Source: an uncultured Planctomycetaceae bacterium
GTDB taxonomy: Bacteria > Planctomycetota > Planctomycetia > Isosphaerales > Isosphaeraceae
NCBI GenBank assembly: GCA_963833985.1
Contig: CAWIAD010000001.1
Span: 2,144,001 to 2,208,000 of the forward strand
DNA: 64,000 nucleotides
Direction: 5' to 3'
Under the pieces are notes generated by a model that made no database searches, was not told the origin of the DNA, and saw only the letters and a program-made list of their open reading frames with translations. Below, one piece after another: positions 50,908 to 64,000 of this stretch (position 1 is the stretch's first letter; the number at the start of each line of letters is the position of its first letter). Made by a program: the position numbers and the translations under genes.

Positions 50908-52444
50908 ATGCAGGCCATGAAGATCGAGCAAACCATCTTGAGTCTCCTCGAGGCCGGCGACGACGAGGCATCTGCGATTGCCGCACCGGGCGTCCGTTCG
51001 CTGAGCTATGGCGCGTTGCGCGCGCAGGTCCGCTCCACCGTGGAGACCCTGAATCAACTGGGAATTGGCCGGAACGACCGGGTGGCGATCGTCCTGCCCA
51101 ACGGGCCAGAGATGGCGACGGCGTTCCTGGGCATCGCGGCCGGCGCATCGGCCGCACCGCTGAACCCGGCCTACCGCAGTGACGAATTCGAGTTTTACCT
51201 CTCGGATCTCGCCGCGCGGGCCATCGTCGTGGAGCAGAACAGCGACTCCCCGAGCCGCCAGGTCGCCCAGCGGCTGGGGATCCTCGTCCTCGAGCTCCAC
51301 ACCGCCGGGACCGATCGGCAGGCGGGCGCTTTCCATCTCAAGGCGACTGGCTCCGTTTCGGAGCCGGCGGCGACGGGCGGCTTTGCCCAGGAGGATGACG
51401 TGGCACTCCTGCTGCATACCTCCGGGACCACCTCGCGGCCCAAGCTGGTGCCGCTTTCGCAACGCAACGTGACTGCCTCGGCGCGGAGCATCCAGGCCAC
51501 GCTCGAGCTCACCGCCGGCGATCGCGGTCTGAACATCATGCCCCTGTTTCATATCCACGGGCTGATGGCTGGCCTGCTGGCTCCGCTAGCGGCCGGCGGG
51601 CGGGTGTTCTGCACGCCGGGCTTCAACGCCCTGCGGTTCTTTACCTGGATGAGCGAAGCGCACCCCACCTGGTACACGGCAGTGCCCACCATGCATCAGG
51701 CGATCCTCACGCGCGCCGGGCACAACCGCGAAGTGATCGCCGCGAACCCGCTCCGGTTCATCCGCTCATCGTCTTCCTCGATGCCCCCCCAGGTCATCGC
51801 CGCACTGGAAGAGACCTTTGCGCGCCGCTCATCGAGTCCTACGGCATGACCGAGGCATCGCACCAGATGGCCAGCAACCCACTGCCTCCCCGCAGGCGCG
51901 TACCGGGCACGGTGGGTCTCGCCGCCGGGCCCGAGGTGGCCGTCATGGACGAACAGGGGGCGCTGCTTGGACCCGCGCAGACTGGCGAGATTGTGATCCG
52001 TGGCGAGAGCGTCACACGTGGTTACGAGCAGAACCCGCGGGCCAATGCCGAGGCGTTCACGAACGGCTGGTTCAGGACCGGCGATCAGGGAGTTCTGGAC
52101 GAATCGGGCTATCTCACGATCACCGGCCGGCTCAAGGAGATCATCAACCGGGGCGGCGAGAAGATCTCCCGCGCGAGGTGGACGAGGTGCTCATGGACCA
52201 TCCGGCAGTCTTGCAGGTGGTCACCTTCGCCTACCCGCATGAAAAGCTGGGCGAGGACGTGGCGGCCGCGATCGTGCTGCGCGAGGGGGCGTCCGCCACG
52301 GAGCAGCAGATTCGCGAATTCGCAGCCCGGCGCCTGGCCGATTTCAAGGTCCCCCGCAAGCTGCTGTTCGTGACCGAGATTCCCAAGGGAGCCACCGGAA
52401 AGCTCCAGCGCATCGGCCTGGCCGACAAGCTGGGGCTGAGCTGA
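50908..52444 (+). CDS. Acyl-CoA synthetase, oxalate-CoA ligase-like (apparent frameshifts ~51820 and ~52170)
   Basis: [75 protein letters not shown]. Confidence 0.85.
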
Positions 52445-59728: not shown

Positions 59729-60537
59729 CTACACCACGGTGGATTCTTCCGCCAGTGAGGCAGGCAGTCCGCCGAACTTTCGCTCGCGCCCGGCGTAGGC
59801 CGAGCAGGCCTCCAGCAGGTCGTTCTCGCGGAAATCGGGCCAGAGCGTGGGAGTCACCCAGAGCTCGGTATAGGAGATCTGCCAGAGCAGGAAGTTACTG
59901 ATCCTCATCTCGCCGGCCGTGCGGATCAACAAATCCGGATCGGTCATCCCCCGCGTGTTCAGGTAGGATTCGAAGAGGCTCTCATCCACCTGCGCGGGAT
60001 CGATGCGGCCCGCGCGCACGTCGAGCGCCAGCCTCGCGCGGCGTCGCCGATTTCGGTCCGGCCGCCATAGTTCACCGCCAGGCAAAGGATCATGCCCGTG
60101 TTGCCTGCCGTCTCCCGCGTGGTCCGGTCGAACTCGGCGAGCACTTCCGGCGGCAGTCCCTCGCGCCGGCCGATCATCCGCAGCCGGACGTTCTGATCCA
60201 TCAGCTCGGCGCGCTCCACGATCAGGAAGTGACGCAGCAGCCTCATGAGGAACCTGAGCTCGCGTGGCGGCCGCTTCCAGTTCTCGACCGAGAAGCAATA
60301 GAGAGTGAGCTGCTGGAGACCCAGGCGGCAGCCTTCCTCGACCACGGCTCGGACGCTCTGGATGCCGCGCCGGTGCCCCACGATCCGCGGCAGACCACGG
60401 CGCTGGGCCCAGCGCCCGTTGCCGTCCATGATGATCGCCACGTGGCGAGGCAGCTGCTCGGGTTTCAGGCCGACCGCCGCGATGCGTGCCAGCCCTTCAT
60501 CGGTGATGCCGGCGCCTTCTCGGAATCCTGAGTGCAT
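59729..60537 (-). CDS. uppS: Undecaprenyl diphosphate synthase (apparent frameshift ~60035)
   Basis: HVAIIMDGNGRWA, FSVENWKRP, NYGGR; second frame has PDLLIRTAGEMRISNFLLWQ, RKFG. Confidence 0.94.
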
Positions 60538-60597: not shown

Positions 60598-61899
60598 TCA
60601 GGCGTCTCTGCCCGCGGCCACCGCGATGGTCTGTCGCCGATCCGGGCCAACCGAAACAATCGACGCCGGTATGCCCACCTGCCGCGAGAGAAACTCGACG
60701 TAGTTCCTGGCATTCCTGGGCAGGTCCGCCCAGCTCCGGACCCCGGTGATATCTTCCGGCCAGCCGGGCAACGAGTCGTAGACCGGCTGGCAGTGCTCGA
60801 AGTCGGCCAGCGACGCGGGCAGGTCGGTCACGCGCTGGCCGTCCCGCTGGTAGGCCACGGCCACCTTCAGCTCCTCGATGCCGCCGAGCACGTCCAGGAG
60901 CATGATCGCGATCTCGCTGGATCCGCAAATCCTGGCCGAATAGCGCACGGCGACGGCGTCGAACCACCCGCACCGCCGGGGCCGGCCGGTGACGGTTCCA
61001 TATTCCCGGCCCACGGTACGAATTCGTTCGCCGGTCTCGTTATCCTGCTCGGTGGGAAACGGCCCTCCGCCCACACGGGTCGTGTACGCCTTGACCACGC
61101 CGATCCAGCGGTCGATGTTCCGGGTGGGCACTCCCGATCCGGCCGCAATCCCCGCGGCGCTGCTGTTGGAACTGGTCACGTACGGGTAACTGCCGTGGTC
61201 GATATCCAGCAGCGACCCCTGAGCGCCTTCGAATAGCAGCCGCTTGCCCCTGGCCAGCGATGCGTGCAGCCAGGCGGTCGTATCCCGCACAAAGGGGCGC
61301 AGTTGCTCGGCGTGCTGGAGGTACTCGTCGGCCACCGCCTTGGCGTCAAAGGGCTCGAAATCGGGTAGCATGGCCGCCAGCAAGCGGTTCTTGAAGGCGA
61401 TGATGCGGTCCAGTCGCTCTCGAAAGACGGCCGGGTGGAACAGGTCGGTCATGCGCACGCCGTGCACCCGGCCCACCTTGTCGCGATAGCAGGGACCGAT
61501 GCCACGGAGCGTGGTTCCCAGGTGGTCGGCTTTCGACGCCGACTCCTCTGTGAGGCGCTCCTCCGCCAAATGGTACGGCAAGATGACGTGCGCCCGGTCG
61601 CTGATGTGAAGCCGCTCGCCAAAATGGACGCCTTGCGACTCGAGCCGGGTGATCTCCTTCAGGAGCGCCGGGGGATGGATGACCACTCCGTTGCCAATCA
61701 CGCAATCAATTCCCGCACGCAGGATGCCGGTGGGAACCAGCGAGAGCTTGTAGGTCACCCCCTCGTGCACCACCGTGTGACCCGCGTTGGCCCCTCCCTG
61801 ATAGCGGACGACCACGTCGTGCTGGTCACACAGCAAATCGACGATCTTTCCCTTGGCCTCATCGCCCCACTGGAGGCCCACGACGCAGCTCGAGCCCAC
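60598..61899 (-). CDS. purA: Adenylosuccinate synthase
   Basis: GLQWGDEAKGK, QGGANAGHT, EYGTVTGRPRRCGW. Confidence 0.97.
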   Translation of the reverse strand: MGSSCVVGLQWGDEAKGKIVDLLCDQHDVVVRYQGGANAGHTVVHEGVTYKLSLVPTGILRAGIDCVIGNGVVIHPPALLKEITRLESQGVHFGERLHISDRAHVILPYHLAEERLTEESASKADHLGTTLRGIGPCYRDKVGRVHGVRMTDLFHPAVFRERLDRIIAFKNRLLAAMLPDFEPFDAKAVADEYLQHAEQLRPFVRDTTAWLHASLARGKRLLFEGAQGSLLDIDHGSYPYVTSSNSSAAGIAAGSGVPTRNIDRWIGVVKAYTTRVGGGPFPTEQDNETGERIRTVGREYGTVTGRPRRCGWFDAVAVRYSARICGSSEIAIMLLDVLGGIEELKVAVAYQRDGQRVTDLPASLADFEHCQPVYDSLPGWPEDITGVRSWADLPRNARNYVEFLSRQVGIPASIVSVGPDRRQTIAVAAGRDA

Positions 61900-62181
61900 G
61901 GCATTCCGCTCCGATCCAGTCGGCGACCGTCGCCAGTCGCTTGGCATTGTAAAGTTACAGGGTAACGCGGGGATTCTGCGTCGTCAATCGCGGCGGTCCG
62001 CACCTCTTTCGTCCCGCGCTCGCTTTGGCCATACTGGAATCGAGGTGCCGGGTTTGCGCGCCTTGAGCTTTCCGCTTCAACCCGACGCAGGGTGCCCGGC
62101 CATCCGCCTCGGCGCGATACCGGTACGAATCGGGACATGGTGCGGATGGGCGAGTGCTGCCGCAAGCGAAAGGGTGGATCG

Positions 62182-63420
62182 ATGCGCACAGTTCTTGTCG
62201 GATTCACAGCCCTGCTGTGGGCCATCACGGCCGCAAAAATGAGCCATGCCGGGGACCTGGCCCCGCCTGTGCACGTTCTGGCCGGAGGGCAGGCAGTGGA
62301 TGTGGCACGGGTCGGCCACGCCGCTCCTTGCTACGGCGATGTGGACGGAGACGGCGTCAAGGACCTCCTTGTCGGCCAGTTTGACGACGGGCGGATGAGG
62401 ATCTACCGCAACCTCGGTACGAATGCGAGTCCCCGGTTCGATGGCTACGAGTGGTTCGAGGCCGGCGGCAGGGTCGGGACCGTCCCGGCGGGGTGATGCA
62501 TCGGCTTCACTCCACAGTTGGTGGACCTCGATCGTGACGGCAGACTCGATGTCCTCTCCGGCTCCTGGCCTGGTGAGATCTTCTGGTTTCGCGGCCTGGG
62601 CCAGGGCAGGTTCGCCGCCGGCGTGACTCTCCTGGCAGCTTCCGGAATGGCCGTGAACGTCGGCCATGCGGCCTCGGCCTCGGCTTGCGACTGGGACGGG
62701 GACGGCGATTGCGACCTGATCGTGGGCAACATCCTGGGTGAGGTTCATCTCCTGCGCAATCTCGGCCCGGCGTCCTCGCCTCGGTTCGTTACTGCGGGTC
62801 GGCTCGAGGCCGCCGGAGAGCCGATTGCCATGGCTTCTGGCGATAGCGCTCCGGTCGTGGCCGACTGGGACGACGACGCCAGAACCGACCTGGTCATCGG
62901 CTGCGGCGATGGCAGCGTGGTCTGGTTTCGCAATGTAGGCAAGCCAGGCTCACCGCGGCTGGCCGCGGCGCAAACGCTCGTCTCTGCCAGCAAGCTGGGC
63001 TGGAACTACGACGCGGCGCGCAAGCCGGGACAGTGGGGAGCGCGGGCGAAGGTCTGCGTGACGGACTGGAACGGCGACGGCAAGCTCGACCTCTTGCTGG
63101 GCGACCTCTGCGCGGGGCATCTGGGTAAACCCGCCCAGACCGATGCCGAGAAACGCGAAGAGATCGCGGCTCGGGATGAGCTGCCCCGGCTCAAGGAGAG
63201 ATGGGTCGCCACTTATGAGGAATACGGGGAACTGCGTCAGCGGATCGCCACCGGGAAGGCTTCGGCCGGGGAGGATGATGGGAAAGCCGGCGAGTTACAG
63301 GCTGCGATGAAGCGAATCAAGGAGGAGATCGTGGCGGTGCAGAAGACCCAGGCGCGGTACAAGCCGGGGTACCAGTACCACGGCTTCGTGCGGGTGTTCC
63401 TGAGAACGGGGCCGAGCTGA
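62182..63420 (+). CDS. Secreted FG-GAP/VCBS repeat protein, putative selenoprotein (in-frame TGA 62494-62496 read as Sec105)
   Basis: ORFs 62092-62496 and 62518-63420 are in the same frame, separated by one TGA: ...GTVPAG*CIGFTPQLVDLDRDG. There is a signal peptide and five DxDxDGxxDL-type repeats spanning the TGA. Confidence 0.75.
62497..62532 (+). promoter_or_regulatory. Bacterial SECIS-like hairpin
   Basis: ATCGG(62500-04)/TCGAT(62528-32) lower stem, TCCAC/GTGGA upper stem, apical loop AGTTG beginning 19 nt after the TGA with G at loop position 2. Confidence 0.6.
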
Positions 63421-63459
63421 CACTCCACGGTCAGCCGGGCCCCGGAAACGTCCCGCGCA

Positions 63460-64000
63460 TCAGAACCGTCCCCGCAGATCGATGATGGCGTCGCCGTTCT
63501 GGGGGAGCATGTCGAAGCGGTTGTCGGGAACTTTGTTCACCGTAAGACTCTGGACATGGATCTCCTCGAGCATGACCGGCCTGTCCTTGAGATCGGGATG
63601 CGGCCTGGCGGTGAAGCTCTCTCGCCGGATGGTCATGGGCAGCCAGATCCCCGGCTCGACCTGCTTCAGGTCTGCCGTGATCCAGCGGTTATGGACCCTG
63701 CCGTCGAGTGCCATCTCGCGCTTCCGCGGCACCAGGCCGTGGTCGCGGTCAAGCCAGATCCGGTCCGTGTACTCGCCCTTGAAGAAGCCGGGCTCGATGA
63801 ACGAATTCAGGTTCCCCTTCAGGACCACGCAGGTTGCGCCGTCGACGACCTGGGTCTTCGGTTCCAGCTCGTACGAGTGGTTCTTGATCCATTCAGCGAG
63901 CTGGAAGATCGCCTGACTCTTGCGCAGGTTCGCTGCCCGCGGGGTCAGGGACGTGCAGGCCCACGGCACCAAGGTAGGAGGACACCTGGAAGAAGTTCGG
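63460..64000 (-). CDS. Hypothetical planctomycete protein, C-terminal part (possible LolA-like fold); 5' end beyond window, probable frameshift ~63930
   Basis: VDGATCVVL...RIWLDRDHGLVPRKRE...GIWLP...VNKVPDNRF pattern. Confidence 0.6.
   Translation of the reverse strand, partial: RTSSRCPPTLVPWACTSLTPRAANLRKSQAIFQLAEWIKNHSYELEPKTQVVDGATCVVLKGNLNSFIEPGFFKGEYTDRIWLDRDHGLVPRKREMALDGRVHNRWITADLKQVEPGIWLPMTIRRESFTARPHPDLKDRPVMLEEIHVQSLTVNKVPDNRFDMLPQNGDAIIDLRGRF

Follow-up and report, generated by a model that had tools for sequence, protein, structure and literature searches.

In the portion available to us of a 2026 review of bacterial selenoproteins (PMC13188914), such proteins are marked by UGA codons that alternate with Cys, a hairpin with a G early in its loop and dependence on selA, selB, selC and selD, and the gene described here shares these properties. 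The bSECIS consensus in section 5 of the review has a loop of 3 to 9 nt, a stem of 4 to 16 bp, a G at loop position 1 or 2 and a distance of 16 to 37 nt after the UGA, and section 7 describes most selenoproteins as redox proteins. The 119 families in its Table 1 are mostly thioredoxin-like proteins or metalloenzymes, unlike the present one; FG-GAP, VCBS and propeller proteins are absent from that table, and the U-C order occurs there only in the GxUC motif of the CopZ family (2Fe-2S). Planctomycete FG-GAP proteins have already been mooted as Sec candidates, with another architecture and another residue: the available part of a 2016 study (PMC4807772, Table S9) lists four planctomycete "ASPIC UnbV; FG-Gap" candidates with Gly in the closest homolog. 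Like our gene, these are planctomycete FG-GAP genes cut by an in-frame TGA, with a predicted SECIS in three of the four. They differ in carrying ASPIC/UnbV and in having Gly rather than Cys as the alternative residue, a distinction that is drawn from the descriptions in that table. Among 30 members of the family described here, none had an ASPIC/UnbV Pfam match at E ≤ 0.001.

The scaffold also has described relatives. Members of the VCBS/FG-GAP supercluster (PF13517 and PF01839; integrin alpha, PVL lectin, CRTAC1, tachylectin-2) share with our protein a DxDxDG motif between strands A and B, a signal peptide and a D-to-A loop as the likely ligand site; in tachylectin-2 and PVL this loop makes up the pocket that holds the ligand, according to the sections available of PMC8023676. 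Integrin and PVL have seven blades, whereas our family has a predicted five, with a helical hairpin in blade 5 and the Sec-Cys pair in the D-to-A loop. Five-bladed glycosidases of the GH43/GH62/GH32 type have a similar fold at 5 to 13% identity. The PQQ alcohol dehydrogenases MxaF and XoxF are likewise exported propellers with a vicinal chalcogen pair, but they are eight-bladed, belong to another family and have Cys-Cys where ours has Sec-Cys (PMC13573614, in the part available); profile searches of the read-through protein, including Pfam, gave no PQQ-dehydrogenase match. PprX, PrxL and ScsC, reductases fed by DsbD or ScsB, resemble our protein as exported redox-cysteine proteins linked to a DsbD-type donor, but they have thioredoxin folds, whereas ours is a propeller whose tie to DsbD comes from genetic linkage only (PMC3322552, as far as available).

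The window, that is, the whole 64,000-nt stretch of DNA that was analysed (G000:C1:2144001-2208000), comes from a genome of 10.16 Mb with 65% GC. The gene begins at ATG 62182, and a TGC codon directly follows the in-frame TGA at 62494-62496, after which the frame stays open to a TGA at 63418-63420. Its features are as follows.

62169..62178, + strand: putative RBS, a purine-rich stretch with AGGGTGG at 62171-62177, from reading of the sequence
62182..63420, + strand: whole gene, 412 aa if TGA105 is Sec; predicted exported five-bladed VCBS/FG-GAP propeller with a vicinal Sec-Cys pair (frame reading, family alignment and model)
62182..62250, + strand: probable cleavable signal peptide, residues 1-23 (by inspection)
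62251..62493, + strand: closing strand and blade 1 with the first DxDxDG loop, a separate protein of ~104 aa in databases (Pfam, model and database homologs)
62494..62496, + strand: in-frame TGA, Sec105 (codons at homologous sites; co-occurrence with selA)
62497..62499, + strand: Cys106, vicinal to Sec105 (Cys after 149/149 TGAs)
62500..63141, + strand: blades 2 to 4 and the first half of blade 5, with four further DxDxDG loops (Pfam PF13517/PF01839, model and fold search)
62511..62525, + strand: bSECIS core with a 5-bp stem, a 5-nt loop and G at loop position 2, overlapping codons +5 to +10 (consensus fold and family conservation)
63142..63357, + strand: predicted helical hairpin within blade 5, residues ~321-392 (helices 298-333 and 339-369 in the model of the mature protein)
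63370..63399, + strand: conserved C-terminal strand with a G-F-V-W-like motif, predicted to complete blade 5 (alignment and model)
63418..63420, + strand: true stop, a TGA without SECIS (TGA, TAG and TAA vary here in homologs)

An earlier note on this DNA had read an RBS, a signal-peptide-like start, one repeat before TGA 62494 and four in frame after it, 412 aa in all, and the sequence bears this out. Its further claim that the downstream part has no ATG, RBS or signal peptide of its own was only partly right: TTG 62518 (chosen by ORF callers) and GTG 62521, both within the hairpin, and an in-frame ATG 62647 in repeat 2 are possible starts, but no signal peptide follows any of them. A hydrophobic 10-mer was present at the place equivalent to the signal peptide in 151 of the 158 homolog sites with sufficient upstream frame. 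The read-through protein matched only FG-GAP families in Pfam (PF13517 at 84.6 bits against a cut-off of 26.9), and PF13517 was matched by 30/30 family members. The closest named homologs are from Planctomycetota, one of them from an Isosphaeraceae bin of the same genus group. The gene is present in a single copy in its genome, divergent to purA and convergent to a gene without a Pfam match; no sigma-70 promoter or intrinsic terminator was matched across 61800-63700.

Elsewhere in the window, uppS (59729-60537, − strand) and a gene for an AMP-binding enzyme (51818-52444, + strand) each lie in two frames, which suggests indel errors in the assembly. For these two, the statement in the note that the other breaks of the window are indels was accurate. 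Because both genes are frameshifted, assembly error at the TGA had to be excluded through homologs. No RNA run was listed as containing this DNA, and the best run of DNA reads shared 0.10 of words. A 151-nt contig of depth 2 covers 62368-62518 and agrees at the TGA, which sits too near the contig end for this to carry weight.

We consider it nearly certain that UGA105 is decoded as selenocysteine by SelB and tRNA-Sec, guided by the hairpin, to give one 412-aa protein. When distinct homologous sites were pooled (n=163), the codon at this position was TGA in 149, TGC in 8 and TGT in 6, and TAA, TAG and TGG were found at none of them. Cys adjoined the TGA in 149/149 TGA sites. The terminal stop served as a control; among 92 full-length TGA-form homologs it was TGA in 44, TAG in 32 and TAA in 16. 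Genome-wide recoding of TGA was considered and rejected, since TGA serves as the terminal stop of this gene and alternates there with TAA and TAG in homologs.

These sites came from several samples. Named genomes contributed 80 loci, of which 11 proved to be orthologs, 10 with TGA-Cys and 1 with Cys-Cys; the other 69, more distant FG-GAP paralogs in which the site is lacking, do not enter the counts. An order-level sample gave 35 matches from 28/121 genomes, every one with a single TGA. A Planctomycetota sample gave 143 matches from 104/401 genomes, with one TGA in 141 and no stop in 2, and the 51 matches inspected were TGA-Cys in 49 cases and Cys-Cys in 2. The patterns used for the metagenome scan did not demand a TGA; 78 sites were gained from 77/80 loci. 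TGA forms were also found in two Verrucomicrobiota bins (L029 and L092). The TGA-Cys pairs with Cys-Cys in some homologs foreseen in the note were thus found, and the Trp codons or lack of conservation that would have spoken against Sec were not, TGA forms being accompanied by Sec machinery. On a quick tree, U and C interchanged at least six times, Cys-Cys forms being interleaved with Sec forms. Six of the 21 full-length stop-free homologs fetched had no pair, one of these retaining a single Cys, and the first Cys alone was retained at 2 metagenome sites, so the scaffold can persist without the pair.

A few members depart from the common pattern. L166 (G057:C5), a divergent member, has C-U-C-C at the site, and L263 has U-C-T with one additional residue ahead of the hairpin. 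Tandem pairs of family genes, each gene with its own TGA-Cys, were found in L184 (G397) and L185 (G359), one L185 copy having a degenerate hairpin loop. The genome G119 has four family copies.

The hairpin lies at 62511-62525, with stem arms TCCAC and GTGGA around an AGTTG loop that begins 19 nt past the TGA. The loop of 5 nt, the stem of 5 bp, the G at the second loop position and the 19-nt spacing fit the consensus given in section 5 of PMC13188914, apart from a borderline energy. The free energy was −7.4 kcal/mol for the 33-nt two-stem form and −5.9 for the core, against a ceiling of −7.5 kcal/mol in that consensus, and varied with the window folded. Its stability was not above that of shuffled sequences (z of +0.45 for 87 nt and −0.12 for 33 nt), so that the single sequence is no proof and the family has to supply it. 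The RNAalifold consensus consisted of the 5-bp stem and 5-nt loop. The two-stem hairpin proposed in the note was thus upheld in its position and its upper stem, whereas its lower stem is peculiar to this gene.

Across the 149 TGA sites, all five stem pairs were formed in 130 and four in 19, and a G occupied one of the first two loop positions in 138. At the Cys sites the hairpin decays, with a five-pair stem in 0/14. The Pro codon within the stem was the rare CCA in 68/83 sites, compared with 5/201 at the same motif position in other repeats, and in 0/12 Cys forms. One stem pair was A-U in 112 of the TGA sites, G-C in 20 and G-U in 6, with a mismatch in the other 11, and the change to G-C requires both a synonymous Pro change and a replacement of Val by Ala. 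The 8 G-C carriers on a 99-row quick tree represented 8 changes, at least 6 of them forced by strong branches. These repeated A-U to G-C swaps supply the covariation that the note had looked for, the formal signal being modest in the first alignment of 33 sequences. A SECIS with some 20 compensatory G-C variants, each at the cost of an amino acid change, amounts to a clean RNA signal overprinted on coding sequence.

A search of the source genome for selA, selB, selC and selD, as advised in the note, found all four above curated cut-offs, with tRNA-Sec at 80.7 bits and selD itself containing an in-frame TGA. Among Planctomycetota, selA was present in 101/102 genomes with the TGA form, against 288/401 overall, these genomes being related by descent. 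Conversely, the TGA form occurred in 1/113 selA-negative genomes, and that genome has selB above the cut-off. In the order-level sample, 24/28 genomes carrying the family had selA. The four without it are 69 to 76% complete: tRNA-Sec was found in three of them and selB above its cut-off in two, while the last shows just a selB-like fragment where a contig ends. As for genomes with Cys-Cys forms, we found no selA, selB or tRNA-Sec in G344 and no selB or tRNA-Sec match in G521, and Sec machinery was present in G375.

We modeled the mature protein (mean pLDDT 90.3, pTM 0.79). The model predicts five four-stranded blades with an N-terminal closing strand, and two long helices in blade 5 ahead of the conserved C-terminal strand. 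The helical hairpin is variable in sequence and is missing from L026, L080 and L092 in the family alignment. In a search of 48,161 chains, the best fold matches of the model were five-bladed glycosidases (Z 18.6, rmsd 4.4, 262 aligned residues, ~10% identity), and the top Foldseek matches had TM values of 0.29 to 0.41. For a predicted structure, this match shows likeness of fold, not of function. The PDB held no close relative, the best sequence matches being single repeats of integrin alpha-IIb, ITFG2 and CRTAC1, and the propeller protein contained no thioredoxin, peroxiredoxin or other known redox fold. The model puts U-C in the D-to-A loop, immediately ahead of strand A of blade 2. Over 84 aligned locus proteins, U105 and C106 were the sole invariant residues outside the repeat scaffold; His46 (44/84) and His400 (35/84) were not conserved, and no acidic residue outside the Ca-loop motifs was conserved at ≥75%. 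This pattern favors chemistry carried out by the pair and disfavors catalytic acids of the glycosidase kind or a metal bound at a fixed site.

Selenenylsulfides formed by vicinal residues are strained and can be reduced. We infer a redox role from the invariance of U105 and C106, the interchange of U and C, and DsbD_N domains fused or adjacent to family members, and the likeliest reading, which we hold at about even odds, is that the pair is an envelope selenol/thiol redox center re-reduced by DsbD. The pair would cycle between the selenol/thiol form and a strained selenenylsulfide ring. Sec would attack an oxidized substrate on the propeller, which might be a peroxide, an oxidized cysteine or an envelope disulfide, and Cys106 would resolve the intermediate between Sec and substrate. 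The ring would then be re-reduced by a DsbD N-terminal domain, either in trans, from the DsbD of the genome, or in cis, from a fused or cotranslated domain. Such domains hand electrons to envelope substrates, as described in the available part of PMC3322552.

A DsbD_N domain was fused or encoded by the next gene at 11/14 Cys-Cys sites and was fused at 1/151 Sec sites. The fused or adjacent domain has an invariant QAC-x4-C motif and was recognized as Pfam DsbD_N in 7/10 cases. It is also fused in the database proteins P0032 and P0065, and FG-GAP occurs together with DsbD_N in 57% of an ESM Atlas cluster of 56 members. At L137:2757-3398, a stand-alone DsbD_N gene with a lipoprotein-like signal overlaps a Cys-Cys family gene at its stop. 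The source genome encodes a full DsbD with two tandem DsbD_N domains (C2:2560441-2563338, − strand; L266). A large thioredoxin-domain protein (L267) ends in another DsbD_N-like domain. Against the redox link, 10/11 of the DsbD_N-linked Cys-Cys cases bear an IY-CC signature and thus come from nearly one clade, so the association may reflect one or two events, and among Sec sites whose downstream sequence reached 700 nt or more only 1/94 has the domain. Complex prediction for a Cys-Cys propeller (A4) and its DsbD_N (A3) scored 0.04 against a mark of 0.32, with controls not folded, a result that tells neither for nor against the link. Clustering of 1,939 ORFs over 87 loci, most with flanks of 1 to 1.5 kb, revealed no conserved gene neighborhood; the clusters found were shadow frames and synteny of close kin only. 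The homologs that lack the pair and the absence of a known redox fold likewise weigh against the redox reading.

We weighed these data against three other readings. It is very improbable that there is no selenoprotein here and that the TGA truly ends translation, results from faulty assembly or is read as Cys or Trp by some other mechanism, leaving two genes or a pseudogene. The frameshifts of the assembly, which reach even uppS, the ordinary stability of the hairpin taken alone and the GTG inside the hairpin at 76/86 sites would all suit such a reading. Against it, 149 independent sites share TGA-Cys, and this TGA never swaps with TAA, TAG or TGG, whereas the terminal stop does vary. The TGA form is tied to selA, the downstream half is without a signal peptide, and the GTG in the hairpin changes to GCG together with a compensating base. 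Moreover, this very gene terminates at a UGA that acts as a normal stop.

The other two readings accept the selenoprotein and differ on what the pair does. In one, which we think rather unlikely, the Sec-Cys ring is noncatalytic and forms a stable structural wall of a pocket for a ligand or cofactor, either lectin-like or packed on a ring system in the way that the vicinal Cys-Cys of methanol dehydrogenase packs on PQQ. The D-to-A loop shapes the sugar pocket of VCBS-supercluster lectins (PMC8023676, in the sections available), the vicinal disulfide C104-C105 of the XoxF propeller sandwiches PQQ (PMC13573614, in the part available), the residue immediately before U is aromatic (W or Y) in several subfamilies, and the top fold matches are five-bladed glycosidases. 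An inert bond would hardly account for a costly Sec codon and SECIS being kept at 149/163 sites, however, and the DsbD_N partner suggests reduction; the fold matches, at 5 to 13% identity, are not joined by any conserved acidic residue outside the Ca loops. We think it unlikely that the protein instead binds, senses or detoxifies soft metals or metalloids (Cu, Hg, As) in the envelope, with the pair kept reduced by DsbD. Metal-related selenoproteins with CU or UC (SaoL, HgcA, MbdU and the GxUC protein of the CopZ family) are catalogued in the portion of PMC13188914 available to us, and both the C-U-C-C of L166 and a His or Tyr in the equivalent loop of blade 1 would accommodate a metal reading. 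Neither a conserved third ligand among the 84 aligned proteins nor a recurring metal-resistance or transport gene alongside the 87 loci was found, which argues against it.

Taken with the redox reading of the pair, the protein may, tentatively, represent a widespread and hitherto uncatalogued class of secreted selenoenzyme, in which a five-bladed VCBS propeller rather than a thioredoxin fold bears a Sec-Cys redox center at its ligand loop and receives electrons from DsbD. If so, it would point to a selenium-dependent reductive pathway in the envelope of planctomycetes and some Verrucomicrobiota, present in about a quarter of the sampled Planctomycetota genomes with up to four copies in each. 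The repeatedly converted natural Sec-Cys and Cys-Cys pairs allow the contribution of selenium to such a ring to be tested.

This is a real and widespread selenoprotein family; its Sec-insertion mechanism is the known one, and its scaffold does not occur in the catalogues that were checked. Of the database homologs of the N-terminal part, 117/119 end exactly at residue 104, that is, at the TGA, as the note had anticipated for proteins of ~100 aa ending in VPxG, and no fetched database protein contains a U residue. No NCBIfam 20.0 model scored above its cut-off for any of the 30/30 members searched. Terms for the family returned nothing from the available text of the BSepDB paper (PMC13326102), whose family table may lie outside the part searched, from the text and four supplements of the deep-Sep paper (PMC12013277) or from the text of PMC13745706, and literature searches found no description of the present family. 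With carriers in 104/401 sampled Planctomycetota genomes, the family is large and brings a new scaffold to the bacterial selenoproteome, yet nearly all of its members are misannotated as two hypothetical FG-GAP fragments. It offers a testable function for part of the huge uncharacterized planctomycete VCBS pool and hints at use of selenium in the envelope.

The source genome contains other in-frame TGAs, several of them with SECIS-like hairpins. Those with such hairpins at C2:4474173 (− strand), C2:5649228 (+ strand) and C2:4615473 (− strand) lie in genes that, by motif, we take to encode formate dehydrogenase alpha, an AhpD/CMD-like protein (CxxU) and a peroxiredoxin-like protein (UxxC), respectively. 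The hairpins of these candidates have the same type of 5-nt loop as the propeller gene, 16 to 20 nt past the UGA. A small membrane-type ORF at C2:4750085 (− strand; L268:461-727) and its paralog at C2:3624431 (+ strand) each have C-G-T-TGA (CxxU-like) and, 18 nt downstream, a SECIS-like hairpin with an AGTTT loop; neither matched Pfam or NCBIfam, and the two are possible further uncatalogued selenoproteins. An exported-looking protein of 185 aa at C2:2610171 (− strand; L270:292-846), with an in-frame C-Y-R-TGA (CxxU-like), also had no Pfam or NCBIfam match. Finally, in a very small protein at C2:6157062 (+ strand; L269:346-552), with one hydrophobic stretch and no family match, M-S-G-S-C comes after an in-frame TGA, and a hairpin stands at 19 nt.
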